A stretch of DNA of 62,954 bases, the filler included, from Asterionella formosa (taxonomy: Eukaryota): the NCBI GenBank assembly GCA_002256025.1. It is 12 parts of 12 records of this genome, joined end to end, with 100 filler letters (N's around TTAATTAATTAA, not from the genome) between each part and the next. Parts side by side here need not be neighbours in the genome. Positions count along the whole stretch, not along the records: positions 1 to 23,724 come from NKIB01002410.1; 11 more parts are not named here. One strand, written 5' to 3'. Shown here piece by piece: positions 6,839-61,514 of the stretch. Position numbers and translations under genes: made by a program. The notes below the pieces were generated by a model that saw only the letters and a program-made list of their open reading frames with translations, was not told where the DNA came from and did not search any database. Position 1 is the stretch's first letter, and each line of letters starts with the position of its first letter.

Positions 6839-8285
6839 TCAATGCTCATCCGCCCTGTCGTTCCCTTTCGAAAGTTTTGTAGTCTCATCAATACAGTGGT
6901 CTTCTTGTATCAAGACATCGGGCAGGACATCAATTGCGTCTTGGGGTTGCCACCATTCAATGACTAAAAGAAGAAACTCAAACGAAACAAGGAGAAGACA
7001 AACCACGCTACCAGCTATAGCACCCATGGAAACGAAACACGATCCCAATCGTTCTAACAGAGTCTTGGATTGCTTCGTCAGTACTTGACGATATACTTCC
7101 ACAGTTTCGGTGGCGACACGGCTCCATGAGTACATTTGTTTGATTCGTTCATGAGCTCTAAAGGGGTCGAAATCAGCTTGTTTCACAATGGCTTCCTTCA
7201 AGTTGCGTACAAGTGAGGATACTTGGGGATCGGATAAAAAGACGAGATCTTCTGGAAGAACTTCGGGAACTCCACCAACATTAGTAGATACGACTAACAA
7301 CCCGCAGCTCGCAGCCTCCAAGATTGCAATACAAAAACTTTCTGTCAGGGAACAATTCAAAAATATATGGCCTCGACATAAGACACTTCTAACTCTGGAG
7401 TGAGGAACCGCGCCGAGAAATTCCACCCGGTCTTGAAGGCCTTCTCGTTCTACCATTTCTTGCAATGCTAAACGTTTGCTACCATCGCCACCAATAATGA
7501 AATCAACTTTTGTGTCCACATTGCATATCCTCGGAATGATCTCAACTAGCAAGTCAACCCCCTTCCGATACACCAGACGTGAAACTACCACAATTTTGAT
7601 TCGTTGCAAATCTCGTTTCAAAGGGTCCGGTGTAAATTTGGACGGATCAAGCGCATTGGGAATCACAACCACCGATCGCGGAGATAATTTGGCTCTCAAT
7701 ATCAAATTGTCTCGGCATGTATGAGAAACGCAAATGGCAGCATCTATATTACATAACGTTGCCTGAAGTACCTGAGGTTTGAAGCACAGTTAGCTACAAT
7801 GTATCACAAACGTTTCTCTGGTGATGCGAGCGCCTCTATTTTTGGCATTGGTGGTTGTCGCTTACCCGATTGAGTACTATACTGGCCACGTCGTCAAAGC
7901 CAAACAAGGAATGGTCGGTATACACACTTGCCAATCCCAACATTCCTGCATAAACTAAACTCTCATTTGCCATGACAGATGTAGCTTGATGTCCATGTAC
8001 CAGTTGGATCTTTTCGCGAAGGAAGATCCATCGTAGTAACGGCAAGGAGGCGGTAAAGGTCGGCAGGGTATCTTGATCTGTCATTTCTGCTAAAGGACAG
8101 TAATATACTTTCAACGGACCAGGAAGCCATCTTACTCCCTTCCTTTGACCGTACGAATGAGTAATGACGATCACTTTGTGTCCCAAGCGCAGTAAATGCT
8201 GCGCCAAGGACCATAGATGCATTTCAACCCCGCCTAGTCGAGGGTAGAAAAAGTCACAAACGAAAGCAATTCGGAGGCTCCTCAT
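6839..8285 (-). CDS. PIGA: Phosphatidylinositol N-acetylglucosaminyltransferase subunit A (GPI biosynthesis), 2 exons: 8285-7866 and 7771-6839
   Basis: DFFYPRLGGVE, VYTDHSLFGF, VSRLVYRKG and FLNCSLTESFCIAILEAASCGL motifs, plus a C-terminal TM. Intron 7865-7772 (GTAAG...CAG) is in frame. Confidence 0.96.
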
Positions 8286-9027
8286 GCTTTTGGAGAACCT
8301 TTCCTGCAGCTAGGAAGTAGCAGGATAGCGTGATCTTACCAATCCAGCCACAACCTATCAGAAGCTGCAATCAGAGGAAGAAAACAAGTGATCCTTGCTT
8401 AATTGATACACGTATCATTTTCGTAAATATTTGCGCACACTCGTTCACTTTTTGGGCTTGCTTCATCTTCATGCACATGGACTCCACAAACTAAATACAT
8501 ATATGCATACACAGCCCAGGTGTGAACATACCTGGACCTAGTACTCCTATCAGTACCACGTACCTGGTACCGGCCAGTATGAATAATGCAAAGATACATA
8601 TGAATATCGAGAAGCAGCGTCCATTTCATATACCAACTGCACAGCAATATTTGCAGCCATCTCTGTACGGTAGTACGACAGAATCAATAAATAAATACAG
8701 TTAGTAGACCGGTGTTCGTTCGTGTTGCACGTGCTTTGATTCCTGACTTCCTCACTGTTACCAATATACGGTATGTGAATGTATGATTGTACTAAGAGTA
8801 CAAAGAAATAATAAATCTATGTACCGGTAGTGGTCTAGACTTTGATGTTGACCTGGGGGAGTGTGTCTTTCCTGCCTGATGCTCGCTCTGCGCCACATTT
8901 TATTATTTTATTGGAGGATCGCACAATCGGTGATTTATAGGACTTGGCATTATCATATCCTCATTCTAAACGTGGACGCCATTCTCGAAACCTACCCCCA
9001 ACTACGCAGAGCATCACAGGATACGAA

Positions 9028-11397
9028 ATGGCTCCAAACAACGCCCTTGCAGAGCGCAAGGCGAAGCTGCCGAAGAAAGGGACGACGACAGTCCTCGACG
9101 CTGGCACTGTCGAGTCCCGTGGCATGGGGACAAGAGCTACGACTCGGTCGCAGGTATCCGCAGAGATCACCAACTTTCTCAATGGCGAAGCCAGAATCTC
9201 TGTCAAGGCCGAAACTCGAGCCTTCTTTACGGTGTGGACCTTTATCACCCGCCTTCCTGGGCCCACCTGGGTGGACCATCATCCGGGATACCTCATGCGG
9301 GGAATGGCGTACTTTCCCCTCGCCGGGGCCTTGGTGGGCATTTTTGTGTGCGTCTTTTTCGATCTAGCACATGTTACCATGGGTCTACCGGCTGTTGTAT
9401 CCGCCGCCATGTGCACTGCCGCAAGTCTATGGGTGACTGGATGCTTCCACGAAGATGGATTGGCGGATGCTTCCGACGGGATTGGAGGAGGGTGGTCACG
9501 GGCACAAATTCTTACCATTATGACTGACACTCGCTTGGGGACGTACGGGTGTGCAGTGTTGCTCTTGCATACGGTCGCAAAGCTGGAACTCATTGCTGCC
9601 TTGGAGACGTCTCATTGGGACTTAAACGGAAATGCGAGGGGAGCCGGACCAGCATTAGTTGTCATGCATACCCTTTCTAGACTGACTTCACCGTACCTTA
9701 TTCGTACTCGAGACTATGTTGATGAAGCAGGACCCAAATATAAATTCTATTCCTTTATGGTACAAGCGAAGCATTTGGTGTCATGGCACCGGGTCTTGTT
9801 TTCTCTCTTTTCGTCCTACTATGTGGCTACCCTTTTTTATGGACGAATCATGGCGTGGATCATGATAGTAACTGTAATGTTTGTCGCCCATCTATCTGGT
9901 ATGTATGGGGAATATCTTTTGGGTGGGATTATGGGTGATTATTTGGGTGCTACGATCTGTATAACTGAGATTGTTGTCCTGACCATGATTCTAGCAAAGA
10001 GTAGTATTTTGAACCTTAGCCAGTGGATACGTGTGGTAAGGGAAAGGGGTCCAGACAGCCTGTGGGATGCTGCATGCATGCAAGATCATCCAATTGGTGT
10101 CTTGGCCAGGTTTTTTCTTGTTATTTTCTTTACGGGCATTTGGTGCTGCTTCATTGGTCATCCAAATGTGCTTGTCCGAGAATCTGCAATTGATGCTCAA
10201 AACACCGATCCCGAAGATGATATCAGAATAAGCTTGAAAGCAGCGAGGGATACTAATTCGGACAAAAAAAACTCAGGACGTCAGGTTGCTGAATTCATTT
10301 GTAGCGAATCTGAATCATCATTCCAAGAAAGATTTGATGCAGTGATGGTCTACCTTGATTCACTAGCCAAGCCTGTTGGATCACTTGGGACATTAGAAAA
10401 CTGGGCTTCCAAGCTTGCTGCATTGCAACGAACACTGCAGCCATCCGTAGATCCAGTAGCTTGTCTTATCTTTGCCGCGGATCACGGAATCGCCAAAGAT
10501 CCAAGTGAGGGTGGGGAGAAATGTTCTTCGTATCCTCAAGCCGTCACACGAAGTGTCTTACAAGGTCTTGAACATGGAATTGCTGGCGCATCTGTATTGG
10601 CAAAAAGCAATCATGTTTCGCTACGAGTGGTCGACGTGGGTGTCTGCGGTGAGCCCTTTCAGGGGGATGTGGTCGTTTCGTCCCCTTTGAAAATCCAAGG
10701 TGGAACAAGGAACTTTTGCGTTGGGCCTGCAATGACAACGGTAGAAGTCGAACGATGCATTCGTCTTGGTCGTGAGGAACTTTCTCAATACATTTGTGAT
10801 ACAAATGCCATGGTGGTGGTCTTGGGAGAAGTTGGTATTGGGAATACAACAGCATCGTCTGCTCTGATTGCGCAGCTGACGGATTTCAGCGTGGAATCTG
10901 TTTGTGGAGGAGGTGCCATGACTGGAAGAGAGGACGATCAAGCATCCATTGCAAAGAAAATTAGTATCGTAAAGAAAGCAATAATGCTGCATGGTTCATC
11001 CATCCAAGGTGCAATGGATGCATTGGAACGACTTGGTGGAGCAGAGATTGCTGCACTTGTGGGGGCTATACTCGAGGCATCAGAGCGAAACCTTGCGATT
11101 CTGGTAGATGGATTCATTGTAACAACTGCAGCCCTTTTGGCAGCACTTTTATCTCCCAATGTCTGTCGGGTTTTACTCTTAGCAACCCAATCGGCGGAAA
11201 TAGGGCAGCTAGCTGCGATCCAACGCATTCAAAGCATTGCACAAGAAAACGGGATTCCAAGATTAGAAAGCCCTGCAATTACTATGGGCCTACGAATGGG
11301 GGAAGCCTCAGCAGCACTTCTAGCGGTTCCTATTTTGCGAATTGCCACAGTGGTTCTCTCAGAAATGGGGACTATTCAAGATATAATCTCGCTTTAA
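9028..11397 (+). CDS. cobS-cobT: CobS-CobT fusion: cobalamin synthase (adenosylcobinamide-GDP ribazoletransferase) fused to nicotinate-nucleotide:dimethylbenzimidazole phosphoribosyltransferase
   Basis: N-half is multi-TM with FITRLP, FHEDGLADASDG, DTRLGTYG and GGIMGDYLGA (CobS). C-half has LAKPVGSLGTLE, FAADHG, GEVGIGNTT, DGFI and LRMGE (CobT). Single uninterrupted ORF with first ATG at 9028. Confidence 0.95.
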   Translation: MAPNNALAERKAKLPKKGTTTVLDAGTVESRGMGTRATTRSQVSAEITNFLNGEARISVKAETRAFFTVWTFITRLPGPTWVDHHPGYLMRGMAYFPLAGALVGIFVCVFFDLAHVTMGLPAVVSAAMCTAASLWVTGCFHEDGLADASDGIGGGWSRAQILTIMTDTRLGTYGCAVLLLHTVAKLELIAALETSHWDLNGNARGAGPALVVMHTLSRLTSPYLIRTRDYVDEAGPKYKFYSFMVQAKHLVSWHRVLFSLFSSYYVATLFYGRIMAWIMIVTVMFVAHLSGMYGEYLLGGIMGDYLGATICITEIVVLTMILAKSSILNLSQWIRVVRERGPDSLWDAACMQDHPIGVLARFFLVIFFTGIWCCFIGHPNVLVRESAIDAQNTDPEDDIRISLKAARDTNSDKKNSGRQVAEFICSESESSFQERFDAVMVYLDSLAKPVGSLGTLENWASKLAALQRTLQPSVDPVACLIFAADHGIAKDPSEGGEKCSSYPQAVTRSVLQGLEHGIAGASVLAKSNHVSLRVVDVGVCGEPFQGDVVVSSPLKIQGGTRNFCVGPAMTTVEVERCIRLGREELSQYICDTNAMVVVLGEVGIGNTTASSALIAQLTDFSVESVCGGGAMTGREDDQASIAKKISIVKKAIMLHGSSIQGAMDALERLGGAEIAALVGAILEASERNLAILVDGFIVTTAALLAALLSPNVCRVLLLATQSAEIGQLAAIQRIQSIAQENGIPRLESPAITMGLRMGEASAALLAVPILRIATVVLSEMGTIQDIISL

Positions 11398-12181
11398 GAA
11401 ATAATAATGCGTATGGAATCATTTTCCAAACTAAGACAGCTTCAATACTGGAGAGCAATATCCAACTTACCAGATGTGTCCATTACTGGCAGATTACAAG
11501 CATGATGTGACTCAATCATGAATTGTCTAGCTTGTCTGCGCAAATGGAGGAGCATAGCAGCAAGTGATGGTCTTCATCGCCAGACATAATTAACAATCCA
11601 TCAATGCCAGTCAAGGTATTTGGGATACTTGTTTGATGCTGATTGCCCTACTGTGTGTCACTGCATCTTCTTTCTTGATGCAACCAGGTTGGCAATCAAA
11701 ACCTGGATTGGGCCCTTTATTTGGACCTTTTATTTTGTTCATCATGATGGATGTAACCTTCATTTGATAATTCCCTTCACTGGTTTATCAGTATTTTTGC
11801 TCTTAATTGGAACCAATATACTTCCATACAGGAACTCACCCTCTTACAGAAGGAAGCATTGCAGGAATGAATTACCACCGCATTGAAAAAGGTGTGCACC
11901 TAAACGGCTCACCATCAGCAATCATTTCGATACATTATGTGGGAACCGATAGACTATACCTAAATAATACCTGGAAGTTGCGGTAAAAGATAAACAGGGC
12001 ACCGGTATACGTGGTACCAGGTACCAGGATTTACCTAACCAGGTACCGGAGTACCATCTATCTAACGTGGTAAATCCAGTACCTGGTACGATAAATTAAA
12101 ACCAAATGGAGACAGACATCATAGCTATGAATACGATATTTTGAAATCGCTCTCCTTCTGTCCAAAAGGCGTTGAAAAATC

Positions 12182-13371
12182 ATGTTTCGCTTCTCACTAT
12201 TGGCCCTTGCCTTGGTCGGATTGACGCAGATTGAGGCTTCTCGACGAGGCGGGAGCTTGCTCACACCAATTGCCTTTCGCCATCCTACACTTCCTATAAA
12301 ATCAAAAAATGCAGTATCAAATCACGGCGCGTTGTCCTTCCTTGATGATGGGGGAAGCATTTCATCAGTAAAGCAAGTGGTTGCGGTACGTACGAAGCCA
12401 TGTACACCATATTATCCACCTTGTCGCTCTGAACCTACAATCATTTTGTCTCCGTCCTTCTTTTCAGATTCCTCTTTTGGCCAAGAATTTGCTTCGTGGT
12501 GCATTCCTCCGAGTGGCTTCTGATCTCTCCGGAGGAACCCCGTTGGAGTCTATTAAATGCCGAGTGACGGCAACCAGGGATGGCCCGATTCAGGCTACTC
12601 GAGATATCATTCGAGAAGGTGGTTTGGGAAATCTCTGGACCGGAACTCCATCACGTACCGTTGAGGGTGCCCTTATGGGTGCAATTTTTATGCTGGGTTC
12701 GACCGTTACAAAGAAACAAGTGCTTCTCCTGGGTGCCTCGAAGACTACAGCGGCGTTAGCAGGTGGACTGGTGGGTGGCGTCGCTCAAAGTATCGTCATG
12801 ACCCCCGCAGCTATGGTGTTTACCAGTCTCAATTTAAACCGCGGAAAGAAAGGATACGAAAATGACAATGCCATTACTGTGGCCCAAAGGATAATAAAGG
12901 AAAAGGGACTTAGGGGTAAGTGTCAACGACAGCCTTGTGCGTATACTCGACACAAAGTCAACTGAAAACATGAAAACTCAATCGGACTTTCATCTCCCTC
13001 GCCTAGGTATGTTCATTGGTGCAGGTCCCATGGCAACTAGGCAGGCCACCAACTGGGCCAGCAGATCGTGTTTCACTGAAATTGCCAGAACGACGTTTCG
13101 CATGTCTAACTATGGGTTAGTTGGTGAGTTTGGATCTGGAGTTCTTGGTGGACTCGGCTCTAGCTGGAACACTCCCGTCGAGACGATCCGTGTGCTGATG
13201 CAAATGGATGTTGGTGCTGGTCGTCCACCGAAGTCATCTCGGGAATACTGGGATGCTGTTGTGAAGGAGCAGGGCTATATTGGTCTTTTCCGTGGTGTCA
13301 CACCTAGGGCTATCCAGGCGGTTTGGCAAACACTATTCCTTGTTGTGGTTCCCAACCTCCTTGGAATTTAA
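12182..13371 (+). CDS. Mitochondrial-carrier-family (SLC25 fold) transporter with N-terminal signal peptide, 3 exons: 12182-12385, 12468-12915, 13007-13371
   Basis: Carrier signatures PLESIKCR and PVETIRV, plus GLFRGVTPR. Introns 12386-12467 and 12916-13006 are GT-AG and keep frame. N-terminus MFRFSLLALALVGLTQIEA. Confidence 0.88.
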
Positions 13372-47728: not shown

Positions 47729-48784
47729 TTAATTTGGGTGATCATATTTGACTAGCGTTTTTTTTGTGGCGGCTGTACCAGTAATCGGCGTTGTAGATGA
47801 TTTTGTCTGAAGAAGACCAAATGCCATATCTATTCTTATCCTTAGCTGTGAAAGGAAAAAGTTAAATGTATCCTGTGTTGGATCATCACGTTGTGAGCCA
47901 ACAAAGGGAACAAGCATTACATCAGACAATGTGTAAGCTGCATCGCCGACCAGATAAAAACTTGTGTTGAATGCTGCAACTTGATCGAAAATGGAAGTTT
48001 TTTCAAAAGCTACTTGGTCACTGCATTTTCCCGGTGCAATTACACCAAAATAAATAAATCTTGAGTCAGCATCACAAACAGCCTGGACATTGATTCCATA
48101 AGTCATGTAGTGACCGGAAAAAAATGAACCAGGGTTGTTGCCACTTTCAACTATAGTCGGGCGGTTGATGGTGGCAAGGAAGCCGTCAATAGCACCAACA
48201 CATCCTCTCATCATGCCCTCTGAGCTTTTGCATTCAAAGCTGGAAGCCAATTTGATAAATTCTTCTTTTTCTTTTGGAAAAAAAATTTCGAGTTCTTCAC
48301 AGTTTAGTACAGCATCAATGAACAAATCACGACATCGATAAAGTGAAGCAATGCTACAACCGTAGGCATGACGAATGTCGATGTAACTGCCACCAGCCAG
48401 CCATCGCAAACCAATGGCTACCACAATTTCGGGAATTATGGGCTCAGAAGTGCCACATTTGGAATAATTCCCTGCAATCTGAATTTCCAGCATGGAGGTG
48501 AGTTTTTTGAATGCTCTGTGTGACATTCTGTATGTCTTCTCGAAAGCAATCTCGTGATTGAGTTTCTCGACATGTGATTGCCAGGAGATTCTTTCGTGGT
48601 GCCACTTGTGCCTTCGTTGTCGTCGTCGTTCAGATGACTGAAGCTGCCGTTTACAGCGTCGCCTTTGTCGTTTGGATGAGTGTTCTTTTTCCTCTGCTTC
48701 CTTAGTTAAATGACAGAGGAAGAAGAAATCAAGATCACTACTGTCATCGTCATTATCATCAAGTAAATCAAATGGCGACGACAT
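47729..48784 (-). mobile_element. PIF/Harbinger transposase (DDE_Tnp_4/HARBI1 family), copy 1, C-terminally disrupted
   Basis: YRMS...F..L, LRWLAGGSY, GCVGAIDG, NVQAVCD, PGKCSD, LVGDAAY and FNFFLSQLRIRIDMAFGLL motifs. Family similarity stops after LQTK (~47800). Confidence 0.92.
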
Positions 48785-49337
48785 GATTCATGCAAATGTG
48801 TGTTTTTAATATTATATTTAGTTTCCCGGTAATTATATTTTGTTGTTGCTTGATATCAAGACCATCATTATATTCTGGAGGGATATACACATGATCTTCG
48901 CCAGCCTGTTGCCGTTGAAGATTCATTTTACTCCATGATACAATGTGATCACAAATTAGTGATACAGTGACACTTTTGGAATGAATGAAATTCAGTTCAA
49001 ATCGAGTTACCGTTGCTGATACATTTTCAAAAAAATTCAAATTCCGTGATACACGAAAAAAAATGATAAGAACGACCCTNNNNNNNNNNNNNNNNNNNNN
49101 NNNNNNNNNNNNNNNNNNNNNNNTTAATTAATTAANNNNNNNNNNNNNNNNNNNNNNNNNNNNNNNNNNNNNNNNNNNNAACATGACACTTCTGTCCGAC
49201 TCGGTCGATGGAGCAAAAGAAACGACACCAGCGTCCGGTTATTTGCAAATGGCTGTACTTGATTAAAAACAAATAACCATTTTGTTAGTAACTATTTATG
49301 AGTAAATAAAAATTCTTACTTCCCTCTTTCCCCATAG

Positions 49338-56793: not shown

Positions 56794-56893
56794 NNNNNNN
56801 NNNNNNNNNNNNNNNNNNNNNNNNNNNNNNNNNNNNNTTAATTAATTAANNNNNNNNNNNNNNNNNNNNNNNNNNNNNNNNNNNNNNNNNNNN

Positions 56894-58334
56894 TTACACA
56901 TTTTTGTAAACTTTTTCAACACATTGTGGTGATCGGAAGTATGTACCTGGACACCATAGACACTTTTGCCACACTTCCAGATCAGATCAATTGCAGGAAA
57001 ATTGCAGTTTTTGGGTACATACATTCCATCCTCATCCATGATTTTTGGCAACACATTTGAGGGAAAGATCCCCTTGGAGGGAAAGAGTTCAATGAGATTG
57101 CATTCCTTCAAAGAAGGTAATTCCTTCGAAGAAGGTAATCCCTTCAAAGTAACATCAGCCTTGAGTGAACACCGGTTGATCACAATGAGTTCGAAAATCC
57201 GACCACGAGCATCATTTGTCAATTTAGGGTTGGCACAGACACACAAAAGTTCTTTCTCATCGTCATTGACAGAAGCCATGATAGCTTTCCAAAAATAACG
57301 TCGATAGCCTATTATCACCACAGGAAACAAAGGCTCATATTTATCAGCCTGTTCCACCTCATCAGGAACTGAATTATCGCTGGCATATTCTACTGCATCC
57401 TTTTTGGGAATTGAATCTTTCCTGTCATGTTCTATTGCATCCTTAACAGGAATTGAATATTTCCTGTCATATTCCATTTGATCTCCTGTAGTTGACAAAA
57501 CACAAGCAACAGCAGATTTGGTGATGCGATCAAATTTCGTTTTTGTTTTCGTTTCTTTCAAATGGTCAAGCGAACTTAGAATTATGCGCAATTCAGCATT
57601 TTCATATTTAGGGATAGAAAAGTTAGAAGAAATTAATTTCATCACCTGCCAGGGCACCCCACCAGTCACCTCCAAGATCCTTGCGCGGTCATTTCGTGTA
57701 TCCAAAACCTTAAATGCGAGCGTTAATTCTTCCCAATCCATTTGGCAAGGGTGATTGTATTCATCAAACCCTAGATGTCTTTCCTTGTAGGCAATCTCGT
57801 TGTTTGCTGAAGCTGAAACGATGGAGACAATTTGACCTCCCTGCATTATTTTATCGATGGCAATAAAAGGAAAGCGAAGCGTACCAAGATCTCTGGCTTC
57901 CTTTTGCCCTGGCCGAGCAAACAATCTGTTGATCTGATCGAAAACCAGGACCCATTTCTTCCCCATACTTCGAAGAATCAAGTCAATGGCATTGACAAAA
58001 GTGTTGAGGTGTGTCGATTTCGAAACCAAACCTGAGCTGCTCGACCACGAGAGAGCCGATAATGACGTACCAAATGAACTGCAGATCGCTGTGTACAAAT
58101 CGTCAACGTCTTCCCATTTGTCACAGTCTGGAATGAAAGTTACGAGGTACTTGCAGCTACTACCATATTGCAGTTTCCGAACCAAGTTGACAAGAGAGTG
58201 CGACTTGCCGATTCCATGCGGTCCCTTAATCATGATTCCAGTTGGACCACCTTTTTCGAAGGCATATTCAACCGCTTTCGTCATATCCTTCACAATTTTA
58301 GGGCGATATAAGATTCCCCGACTCTTACAATCAT
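56894..58334 (-). CDS. Crinkler/RHS-type P-loop NTPase + PD-(D/E)xK restriction-endonuclease-fold protein, both ends cut by spacers
   Basis: Walker A GPHGIGKS, Walker B LVFDQ, TGGVP, then RGRIFE...YVPKNCNFPAIDLIW...GVQVH nuclease motif. Uninterrupted frame. Confidence 0.8.
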
Positions 58335-58811
58335 NNNNNNNNNNNNNNNNNNNNNNNNNNNNNNNNNNNNNNNNNNNNTTAATTAATTAANNNNNNNNNN
58401 NNNNNNNNNNNNNNNNNNNNNNNNNNNNNNNNNNAGAACATGATGAACATGGCTGATGATGGTGTCAATCATGGCATCATTGTTGAATCCCACACAAGGT
58501 AATCAGAGCATCATCATGCTTGCTAGTACAACGGATAACCCTAACCCTTCTAAAATTTATGATTGCGAGCAAAAAACCTTGCTGTTTTGTGTCCACAATG
58601 GCCATCATTGAACGTCGCTTTTCTTTAGACCGCATTGCGATCTTGCGGATCCAACTCCGATTCGAGATTCACAATCATCTTTACTAATAGAATGAGTCGA
58701 TGGATCCACGAGGTCACTCATTCTCATTTAATTTTGAGCTATTTTAATTTTATCTGTTCAGAAAGTTCCTACCAACAGAAATGAATTCCAATCGAGCTCC
58801 TGGGTGACCAC

Positions 58812-59874: not shown

Positions 59875-60597
59875 NNNNNNNNNNNNNNNNNNNNNNNNNN
59901 NNNNNNNNNNNNNNNNNNTTAATTAATTAANNNNNNNNNNNNNNNNNNNNNNNNNNNNNNNNNNNNNNNNNNNNTGATCAACTCCTTAGGGACATGGGCT
60001 TGAATCCACATCGAAAGGGGAATCCAATATCAGAATACCTTATGCCGTACGAACCGGCCGATTACGATGGAATCATTGGCAAATGAGTCCAAAGTGAGTA
60101 GCGATGTTTTGCCTGTCCTTTTATTGCACTGTGTAACAACCACTTGATGTTTTACCATACCTAGTGACTTAATAGTTGGTTTATGCAGAGTAGCTAGCTC
60201 TTATTGTATAAAGCCTTCTTTCTGTGACAAGCTTCTGAGGGAAAAAGGAGGGAGGTACCAACGTCAATGCTAGGCACAACTTCTTCGATATATCTTTCTC
60301 TAAGGGTCGTTCTTATCATTTTTTTTCGTGTATCACGGAATTTGAATTTTTTTGAAAATGTATCAGCAACGGTAACTCGATTTGAACTGAATTTCATTCA
60401 TTCCAAAAGTGTCACTGTATCACTAATTTGTGATCACATTGTATCATGGAGTAACATGAATCTTCAACGGCAACTGGCTGGCGAAGATCATGTGTATATC
60501 CCTCCGGAATATAATGATGGTCTTGATATCAAGCAACAACAAAATATAATTACCGGGAAACTAAATATAATATTAAAAACACACATTTGCATGAATC

Positions 60598-61414
60598 ATG
60601 TCGTCGCCATTTGATTTACTTGATGATAATGACGATGACAGTAGTGATCTTGATTTCTTCTTCCTCTGTCATTTAGCTAAGGAAGCAGAGGAAAAAGAAC
60701 ACTCATCCAAACAACAAAGGCGACGCTGTAAACGGCAGCTTCAGTCATCTGAACGACGACGACAACGAAGGCACAAGTGGCACCACGAAAGAATCTCCTG
60801 GCAATCACATGTCGAGAAACTCAATCACGAGATTGCTTTCGAGAAGACATACAGAATGTCACACAGAGCATTCAAAAAACTCACCTCCATGCTGGAAATT
60901 CAGATTGCAGGGAATTATTCCAAATGTGGCACTTCTGAGCCCATAATTCCCGAAATTGTGGTAGCCATTGGTTTGCGATGGCTGGCTGGTGGCAGTTACA
61001 TCGACATTCGTCATGCCTACGGTTGTAGCATTGCTTCACTTTATCGATGTCGTGATTTGTTCATTGATGCTGTACTAAACTGTGGAGAACTCGAAATTGT
61101 TTTTCCAAAAGAAAAAGAAGAATTTATCAAATTGGCTTCCAGCTTTGAATGCAAAAGCTCAGAGGGCATGATGAGAGGATGTGTTGGTGCTATTGACGGC
61201 TTCCTAGCCACCATCAACCGCCCGACTATAGTTGAAAGTGGCAACAACCCTGGTTCATTTTTTTCCGGTCACTACATGACTTATGGAATCAATGTCCAGG
61301 CTGTTTGTGATGCTGACTCAAGATTTATTTATTTTGGTGTAATTGCACCGGGAAAATGCAGTGACCAAGTAGCTTTTGAACGAACTTCCATTTTCGATCG
61401 AGTTGCAGCATTCA
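60598..61414 (+). mobile_element. PIF/Harbinger transposase, copy 2 (cut by spacer)
   Basis: Near-identical to 47729-48784, including ~295 bp of upstream sequence (60303-60597 vs 48785-49079). Confidence 0.92.
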
Positions 61415-61514
61415 NNNNNNNNNNNNNNNNNNNNNNNNNNNNNNNNNNNNNNNNNNNNTTAATTAATTAANNNNNNNNNNNNNNNNNNNNNNNNNNNNNN
61501 NNNNNNNNNNNNNN

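Follow-up and report, generated by a model that had tools for sequence, protein, structure and literature searches.

A CobS-CobT fusion protein in Asterionella formosa and other diatoms: a probable membrane-anchored enzyme for the final stages of cobamide synthesis

Vitamin B12 (cobalamin) limits the growth of phytoplankton, and cyanobacteria supply mostly pseudocobalamin, a form that most algae cannot use unless its lower ligand is swapped. In the last steps of cobamide assembly, CobT converts 5,6-dimethylbenzimidazole (DMB) and nicotinate mononucleotide (NaMN) to alpha-ribazole 5'-phosphate, CobS condenses this product with adenosylcobinamide-GDP (AdoCbi-GDP), and CobC removes the phosphate (PMC8749415). 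In algae, the presence of both COBT and COBS is reported to correlate with the use of pseudocobalamin plus DMB (PMC4850488), and disruption of COBT in Chlamydomonas is reported in a 2026 preprint to abolish the remodeling of pseudocobalamin (10.64898/2026.08.07.738727); a 2020 paper still described the genes of algal remodeling as not yet identified (PMC7733943). Here we describe a gene of the freshwater diatom Asterionella formosa (assembly GCA_002256025.1) that encodes CobS and CobT as one polypeptide. It lies on contig NKIB01002410.1, in a stretch of 62,954 nucleotides (nt), hereafter the window, in which 12 parts of this genome are joined end to end.

In Chlamydomonas reinhardtii and other algae, COBT and COBS are two genes, of the same eukaryote-type families and with the same presumed role as the A. 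formosa gene, but here the two form one polypeptide. Data S2 of PMC4850488 likewise scores 47 MMETSP strains, including 25 diatoms, for COBT and COBS in separate yes/no columns, and that source makes no mention of a fusion. A preprint on horizontal gene transfer in diatoms reports a fusion of CbiZ with CbiB, which follows the same logic of joining consecutive or co-operating steps with different partners, and lists CobT and CobS separately (10.1101/2020.01.24.918219). In our full-text literature search, a CobS-CobT fusion was not named in any paper, a mention being possible in Helliwell 2017 or in the journal version of that preprint; the fused architecture looks undescribed in print, though it is visible in public protein records. 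Among bacteria, the 247-residue CobS of Escherichia coli has an N-in/C-out orientation by reporter fusions, with seven transmembrane segments predicted by TOPCONS (PMC4604451). In Salmonella enterica CobS, loops 2, 4 and 6 are reported to be cytoplasmic; the motif HxDxxxDxxD sits in loop 2, where the exchanges D82A, D86A and D89A abolish function, and GxxGDxxG sits in loop 6 (PMC8092220). According to the same source, CobU and CobT, which feed CobS, are cytosolic, and alpha-ribazole phosphate binds CobS first, with a Kd of 0.58 uM in liposomes.

The A. formosa gene consists of a single open reading frame (ORF) at positions 9028..11397 of the plus strand, an uninterrupted frame of 789 codons plus a TAA stop at 11395-11397. 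Its first half is a CobS domain: Pfam CobS (PF02654) matches residues 70-318 over profile positions 2-206 of 207 (E 3.6e-38; 132.2 bits against a cutoff of 23.2), and NCBIfam NF001277, matched over positions 2-253 of 255, delimits a cobamide 5'-phosphate synthase core at residues 60-325 (9205..10002, +). Both CobS motifs, identified by pattern rather than through an alignment with the S. enterica sequence, are present and invariant in 58 sequences: HxDxxxDxxD at 9448..9477 (+; H141, D143, D147, D150) and GxxGDxxG at 9925..9948 (+; G300, G303, D304, G307). Kyte-Doolittle analysis and an AlphaFold2 model place multiple hydrophobic helices in this half, for which we infer the orientation from the E. 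coli and S. enterica experiments. The protein shares with bacterial CobS (S. enterica/E. coli, ~247 amino acids), a polytopic membrane protein, the PF02654 match and both motifs, and is probably polytopic as well. It differs from it in a 58-residue N-terminal extension with conserved motifs, in an insertion of ~44 residues within the core, where 249 residues stand for 205 profile positions, in an eighth helix past the bacterial C-terminus, and in scoring below the NCBIfam equivalog cutoffs (NF001277, 163.8 against 273 bits; TIGR00317, 80.6 against 110).

The second half is a CobT (NaMN:DMB phosphoribosyltransferase) domain at residues 439-785 (10342..11382, +), matched by Pfam DBI_PRT/CobT (PF02277) over profile positions 12-326 of 329 (E 1.3e-81; 274.8 bits against a cutoff of 22.6) and modeled with a predicted local distance difference test (pLDDT) mostly above 93. 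It matches ten solved CobT/ArsAB chains, with E-values down to 2.9e-40. E601 (in GEVGIGNTT; 10828..10830, +), kept in at least 90% of the 58 sequences, aligns with residue 174 of the S. enterica CobT chain 1jh8_A, and E759 (in LRMGE; 11302..11304, +), invariant in the 58, aligns with residue 317. We take E174 and E317 of S. enterica CobT to be its catalytic glutamates, and E317 to be the catalytic base. The bacterial CobT structures (PDB 1d0s/1jh8, 1j33, 1wx1) have in common with the diatom domain the full-length match and both glutamates, but the diatom domain is covalently tied to a membrane enzyme and is at most 38-39% identical to the best prokaryote proteins. By our reading of the alignment, the positions of S. 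enterica S80 and Q88 are occupied by Tyr and Val, respectively. This half, too, falls below its NCBIfam equivalog cutoff (TIGR03160, 269.6 against 319.3 bits).

Between the two domains lies an eighth, extra hydrophobic helix at residues 355-375 (10090..10152, +; AlphaFold2 pLDDT ~81-88), coinciding with a Kyte-Doolittle 19-mer maximum of 2.31 at residues 354-383. It is followed by a charged, largely disordered linker at residues ~379-431 (10162..10320, +; pLDDT <50 at 394-412), the length of which varies from 66 to 133 amino acids among homologs. The AlphaFold2 model, computed from 58 sequences, has a mean pLDDT of 87.7 and comprises two well-folded domains, the helix 355-375 and the disordered linker. 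An earlier note, made from the sequence of the window alone, had described complete CobS and CobT motif sets in one intronless ORF, with the catalytic glutamate of LRMGE retained and with an extra hydrophobic segment and a charged linker joining the halves. On all these points our results agree with it: on the motif sets through the Pfam and motif checks and colinear RNA-library contigs (see below), on the glutamate through the alignment of E759 with residue 317, and on the junction through the hydropathy maximum, the modeled helix and the pLDDT profile.

A hydrophobic 19-mer lies between the domains in 58 of 63 full-length fused homologs, and, since prokaryote CobS ORFs stop 0-11 residues past the core (median 1.5, n = 34), the diatom helix lies beyond the bacterial C-terminus. 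Given that E. coli CobS ends outside, an eighth helix would bring the chain back to the cytosol, where CobT must work: the extra pass would turn a C-out protein into a C-in one, with linker and CobT domain at the membrane face that bears the active-site loops of CobS. A cytosolic C-terminus of this kind would permit the fusion of CobT beside the CobS active site, so that the first product would be made at the mouth of the second enzyme. With the diatom topology deduced by analogy, we regard this topological role as the best explanation of the segment. We also considered that the helix arose to enable the fusion and rejected this, as unfused eukaryotic CobS proteins carry the same helix; it is found in 21 of 22 separate CobS proteins of the Thalassiosira type, and 18 of the 31 eukaryote-type ones from outside the diatoms have it in less pronounced form. 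A cytosolic C-terminus would therefore predate the fusion and be one to which CobT could be added. The segment noted earlier is hence real and does join the halves, but the account of it as a joining element was incomplete.

The N-terminal extension (residues 1-58; 9028..9201, +) is missing in bacterial CobS. It opens with MAPNNAL (9028-9048) and contains a second block, TTVL..GTVESRG.G (9082-9126), both of which recur outside the diatoms. Among eukaryote-type CobS proteins, 30 of 67 fused and 39 of 86 unfused ones begin with the start motif in the form MA[PV]NN[AG]L, that of the dinoflagellate Prorocentrum cordatum being one of them, and the block, generalized as ..TVL..G.VESRG.G (examples are P0312, P0315 and P0317, in our protein numbering), also persists between the domains of the reverse CobT-CobS fusions described below. 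Neither start motif nor SRG.G block occurs in bacterial CobS, and the region is disordered in the AlphaFold2 model (pLDDT <50 at residues 1-37). By Kyte-Doolittle and AlphaFold2, the extension holds no hydrophobic, signal-peptide-like stretch; plastid targeting, considered on the basis of the N-terminus and with no targeting predictor applied, was set aside for want of such a signal peptide. At the opposite end, most unfused non-diatom eukaryote-type CobS proteins terminate in ...(K/Q)(E/D)C directly after the tail helix (P0312, P0313, P0317, P0307, P0318, P0320-P0339); a terminal cysteine behind an acidic residue is unusual.

RNA-library contigs from four runs in three studies are colinear with the ORF and contain no joints, which identifies it as intronless. 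They come from metatranscriptomes of lake-water and freshwater origin and from a poly(A) library labeled 'algae', two of the runs being poly(A); as assemblies, they indicate presence and colinearity rather than expression levels or transcript ends. One contig of 3189 nt covers 8921-12115 and so bridges the CobS and CobT halves. Among the differences between contigs and ORF, no stop codon or frameshift is listed. Two contigs from separate studies start near the ORF, at 8921 (X4) and 8926 (X5), a weak hint of the transcript 5' end. An in-frame TAG stands at 8938-8940, the first ATG 3' of it is the one at 9028, and no ATG occurs between 8921 and 9028, so that 8921..9027 (+) is a probable 5' untranslated leader. 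The contigs skip the upstream intergenic stretch (~8569-8754 in X1, 8440-8920 in X4, 8412-8925 in X5), a gap that we do not count as proof of transcription. With a GC content of 0.487 and a third-position GC (GC3) of 0.44, inside the range of its neighbors, and with eukaryotic genes around it, CobS-CobT is a nuclear diatom gene of ordinary composition.

This gene is not unique, but is one more member of a diatom-wide fused family. By word-indexed search, 132 proteins of comparable length were retrieved (120 of them listed), and in a profile search both domains are present in 114 of 361 retrieved proteins. At least 63 of these are full-length fused homologs (740-900 amino acids, at least 85% of both profiles) with the order N-terminal extension, CobS, extra helix, linker and CobT in one ORF. 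The catalytic motifs are kept in 58 full-length homologs at 40-75% identity, from which the fused protein appears to be under purifying selection. Among the listed matches, the closest relatives are P0002, a 789-residue protein from an independent source that is 99% identical, P0003 (74%) and, at 57%, the best named one. All named fused matches are diatoms, namely Fragilaria crotonensis, Nitzschia inconspicua, Seminavis robusta, a Bacillariaceae metagenome-assembled genome (MAG), Stephanocyclus meneghinianus (partial) and a CCRYP_ model, a prefix that we take to denote Cyclotella cryptica. An Atlas cluster with both families, used only as a lead, has 103 members, all from Eukaryota and mostly Bacillariophyta. 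The deposited diatom fusions share the architecture at 49-57% identity across 84-100% of the length, and A. formosa is not among the named ones; they are titled merely 'nicotinate-nucleotide--dimethylbenzimidazole phosphoribosyltransferase' or 'phosphoribosyltransferase'. Because automatic annotation labels the fused proteins as CobT only, name-based surveys will undercount diatom COBS.

Several homologs come as an N-terminal piece of ~215 and a C-terminal piece of 500-580 amino acids (e.g. P0297 with 216 and P0077 with 582; also P0289-P0299 versus P0080, P0089 and P0096-P0101), and one such pair is reported from contigs of the same size (18287). This suggests that certain diatoms have an intron near residue 215 and that prokaryote-style gene calling split the gene there. 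Many other 'unfused' matches of pennate clades, short pieces of short contigs, are probably fragments.

In one diatom clade (Thalassiosira, Skeletonema, Mediolabrus, Discostella), CobS (~400 amino acids; P0248-P0278) and CobT (~396 amino acids; P0124-P0164) are separate proteins. The gene is divided precisely within the linker: the CobS protein retains the extra helix and terminates in ...VGPPDMYDRE followed by a Lys/Asp/Glu tail, and the CobT protein begins with its own Met. Among the rows of this clade, the CobT tree has 37 of 37 unfused and the CobS tree 35 of 37, and in Skeletonema menzelii the two models, AAC.5 and AAC.6, are numbered consecutively on one scaffold. Because fused forms flank this clade (pennates, the CCRYP_ model), a secondary split is the simpler reading of these sequences.

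Searched exhaustively with HMMER, 1.84 billion representatives yielded 11,664 proteins at E <=0.001 and 609 at E <=1e-30. The best 150 included 101 new proteins, among them three CobS-then-CobT pieces of diatom appearance and three proteins in the opposite order. Two of the latter, P0364 (687 amino acids) and P0368 (748 amino acids), are clean CobT-linker-CobS proteins; the third, P0373, has a degraded tail and resembles a bacterial read-through. P0364 and P0368 share with the diatom protein both domains and a eukaryote-type CobS, complete with SRG.G block and C-terminal tail helix, but their domain order is reversed. Inside the eukaryote-type clade (25 rows, support 99), their CobS half forms a branch distinct from the diatoms, and the reverse form is therefore probably an independent fusion event. 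Fusion of the same two enzymes in both orders is classic evidence that partners work together. A metagenome scan for P0364 found no close relative, only matches at ~30-37% identity; one of these loci, L084, holds a separate cobT, a 169-residue ORF and cobS. In the Atlas, P0364 led only to the fused diatom cluster, at a score of 0.82 that serves as a lead. CobT has other fusion partners as well, namely a BluB-like nitroreductase (on either side), CobU, a HAD phosphatase, a histidine phosphatase (CobC-like) and a zinc alcohol dehydrogenase (prokaryote loci L023, L074, L077, L079, L020, L051, L071; proteins P0391, P0397, P0402, P0410, P0417, P0419, P0428, P0447). In contrast to the diatom fusion, none of those with BluB-like, CobU, HAD or CobC-like partners ties soluble CobT to the membrane enzyme CobS.

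To place the two halves, domain stretches were cut by profile from every fourth fused protein and all named ones, with at least 85% of the CobT profile and, for CobS, at least 80% in proteins and 70% in loci; the trees carry no root, and their sampling of taxa favors the best matches of the query. The CobS tree (FastTree, 139 rows) separates, with support 100, all 36 prokaryote loci from 103 eukaryote-type rows. Within the latter, the diatoms form one clade (71 rows, support 99), with a sister group of 32 unfused rows that includes Prorocentrum cordatum and MMETSP/EukProt transcripts. For CobT, we computed a FastTree tree of 204 rows and a quick IQ-TREE tree (LG+C20) of 64 rows that leaves out the long-branch locus L044. 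Here, the diatoms (Shimodaira-Hasegawa-like approximate likelihood ratio test, SH-aLRT, 100) are nested in a eukaryote clade of 20 rows (SH-aLRT 100), two of which are called eukaryotic by placement alone; it includes the brown alga Discosporangium and other protists (EukProt/MMETSP rows), and the nearest rows outside it include a Granulosicoccus MAG (95). Turning to gene order, cobS lies near cobT in 48 of the 80 best prokaryote loci. In 20 of these 48, cobT is followed directly by cobS and in 10 with a gap; in 17, cobS precedes cobT by at least 150 nt, and only in L043 is it directly adjacent in the order of the diatom protein. None of the 80 loci has both domains in one ORF, and none of 14 prokaryote-locus ORFs scanned, 12 of them long possible fusions, carries both.

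These data bear on two alternative accounts of the gene. The earlier note had called it horizontally acquired, and a bacterial cobS-cobT operon or fused gene might indeed have entered the diatom lineage recently and still be essentially bacterial. The cob genes are ultimately prokaryotic, the gene is intronless between neighbors with presumed introns, and other cobalamin genes of diatoms have been reported as horizontal transfers (10.1101/2020.01.24.918219). Yet both halves fall into eukaryote clades and identity to prokaryote proteins reaches only 38-39%, which argues against a recent or diatom-specific transfer; likewise, none of the 80 prokaryote loci offers a fused precursor and just one the adjacent order, GC and GC3 resemble those of the neighbors, and repeats that would mark a mobile element were looked for and not found beside the gene. 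We therefore depart from the earlier note on this point: the genes are ultimately bacterial, but a recent transfer is very unlikely. Still more remote, to the point of being negligible, is an artefact, whether a chance read-through or mis-assembly of two adjacent genes or a bacterial contaminant contig. The separate ORFs of Thalassiosira- and Skeletonema-type diatoms could be cited for it, but the frame is uninterrupted, a single RNA-library contig spans both halves, an independent source has a nearly identical protein of the same length, the 63 full-length homologs are built alike, and eukaryotic genes flank both sides on the same contig.

As to function, we consider it likely that this nuclear diatom gene encodes an enzyme with two activities, anchored in a membrane, that carries out the last steps in the assembly of cobamides. 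In the mechanism that we propose, the cytosolic C-terminal CobT domain would convert DMB and nicotinate mononucleotide to alpha-ribazole 5'-phosphate; the polytopic N-terminal CobS domain, its acidic motifs facing the cytosol, would form cobalamin 5'-phosphate from this nucleotide and an activated corrinoid, and a separate phosphatase would finish the product. DMB would thereby be attached to incomplete or 'wrong' corrinoids from the water, in cobinamide salvage or in the remodeling of cyanobacterial pseudocobalamin, and tethering would hold scarce alpha-ribazole phosphate next to CobS, its first and tight binder. By analogy with the characterized enzymes, the activation of DMB and its attachment to corrinoids at the membrane is the most likely role; the hand-over of substrate between the domains, the corrinoid substrate and the membrane location are our inferences. 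A membrane-tethered CobS-CobT with a role in the lower ligand had been suggested before from the sequence, a suggestion with which the intact motifs and the published work on algal COBT and COBS sit well.

Which corrinoid the enzyme serves divides two mutually compatible routes. It is possible, if somewhat doubtful, that it acts in the salvage of cobinamide and incomplete corrinoids by the classical AdoCbi-GDP route, with CobU and CbiZ-CbiB as partners, and that it has no direct part in remodeling pseudocobalamin. Several diatoms are reported to carry CobU and the CbiZ+CbiB fusion (10.1101/2020.01.24.918219), and AdoCbi-GDP is the classical substrate of CobS (PMC8749415); on the other hand, Phaeodactylum tricornutum reportedly lacks these genes yet remodels (10.64898/2026.08.07.738727, 10.1101/2020.01.24.918219), and the CobS of Vibrio cholerae is reportedly required for direct remodeling of pseudocobalamin, without CbiZ (cited in PMC7733943, PMC8092220), although proof in vitro is described as lacking (PMC8092220). 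Because of this V. cholerae report, a missing source of cobinamide-GDP would be a weak counterargument to a remodeling role. That one half of the fused protein is a relic is, in our view, highly improbable. The 2026 preprint notes that fewer algae have COBS than COBT and obtained no phenotype from COBS knockout in Chlamydomonas (10.64898/2026.08.07.738727); however, the residues essential in S. enterica CobS (the motif aspartates and GxxGD) are invariant in the 58 fused homologs, and a mere anchor would not keep them. A bolder proposal, tentative and on the whole rather unlikely, is that eukaryote-type COBS, with its eight helices, cytosolic C-terminus, MAPNNAL start and SRG.G block, forms an obligate membrane unit with COBT that suffices by itself, with no need of CobU, CbiB or CbiZ, to replace the lower ligand of pseudocobalamin with DMB. 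If it were true, the two fusions of opposite order would be 'Rosetta stone' evidence for the long-proposed, never demonstrated membrane complex of CobS and CobT, and the COBS-COBT unit would be the missing remodeling enzyme of algae.

Several observations weigh against the bifunctional, membrane-anchored enzyme that we favor. One diatom lineage works with separate halves, so the fusion is not required, and the tail helix of unfused eukaryotic CobS proteins would point to some role besides enabling it. Both halves are divergent from the bacterial enzymes, given their scores below the equivalog cutoffs. In the AlphaFold2 model, the predicted template modeling score (pTM) is only 0.53, and the mutual placement of the two domains is therefore not predicted; a complex prediction that paired residues 40-395 (CobS) with 413-789 (CobT), run without controls, scored 0.00 against a mark of 0.32, which speaks neither for nor against docking. 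The model also contains a continuous helix of 46 residues (253-298), which leaves the pass count of the core unproven: if it were one pass instead of two, CobT would face the lumen.

With these reservations, the fused family is a clean experimental handle on algal B12 remodeling and useful evidence for a CobS-CobT unit. Across diatoms, which are major primary producers, it presents COBS and COBT as one gene to knock out, localize and assay, with the Thalassiosira-type split as a natural control. For bacteria, in which a physical coupling of CobT and CobS has been proposed but not shown (PMC8092220), the fusion is independent evolutionary evidence of such coupling. It would also show how one extra helix can solve the membrane-topology problem posed by a bacterial CobS that ends outside.

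The genes around CobS-CobT serve as context. Upstream on the minus strand lies a homolog of PIG-A, a glycosyltransferase of glycosylphosphatidylinositol (GPI) anchor synthesis (6842..8309; Pfam PIGA and Glycos_transf_1), in two ORF pieces (6842-7789 and 7839-8309) that are 49 nt apart and therefore in different frames. Downstream, a gene of the mitochondrial carrier family (12182..13371, +; Pfam Mito_carr in two ORF pieces) is split across frames with GT..AG boundaries in the sequence. That both adjacent genes have introns, as the earlier note states, is in keeping with the frame splits and GT..AG boundaries, with the introns themselves deduced from sequence and not shown by RNA. Pfam further identifies elongation factor 2 (EF-2), a SpoU methylase and a leucine-rich repeat protein on the same contig, and a Pfam scan of 19 long ORFs in the window found no second cobalamin gene. 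An Rfam scan of 8300-12300 detected no cobalamin riboswitch; its sole match there, mir-277, is below threshold (23.2 against 43 bits), falls on an inverted repeat at 11996-12104 and is most likely due to chance. An imperfect, GGTACC-rich inverted repeat lies at 12029-12096, in the intergenic region 3' of the gene, and GGTACC-rich runs also occur near 8560-8580 and 8824-8835. The remainder of the window, from 20000 to 62954, is gene-poor and AT-rich, with a GC content of 0.36-0.42 compared with 0.43-0.52 at the left. It contains an AAA_22 ORF at 56845-58386 (-) and two DDE_Tnp_4 transposase ORFs of the PIF/Harbinger type, at 47732-48787 (-) and 60595-61467 (+).

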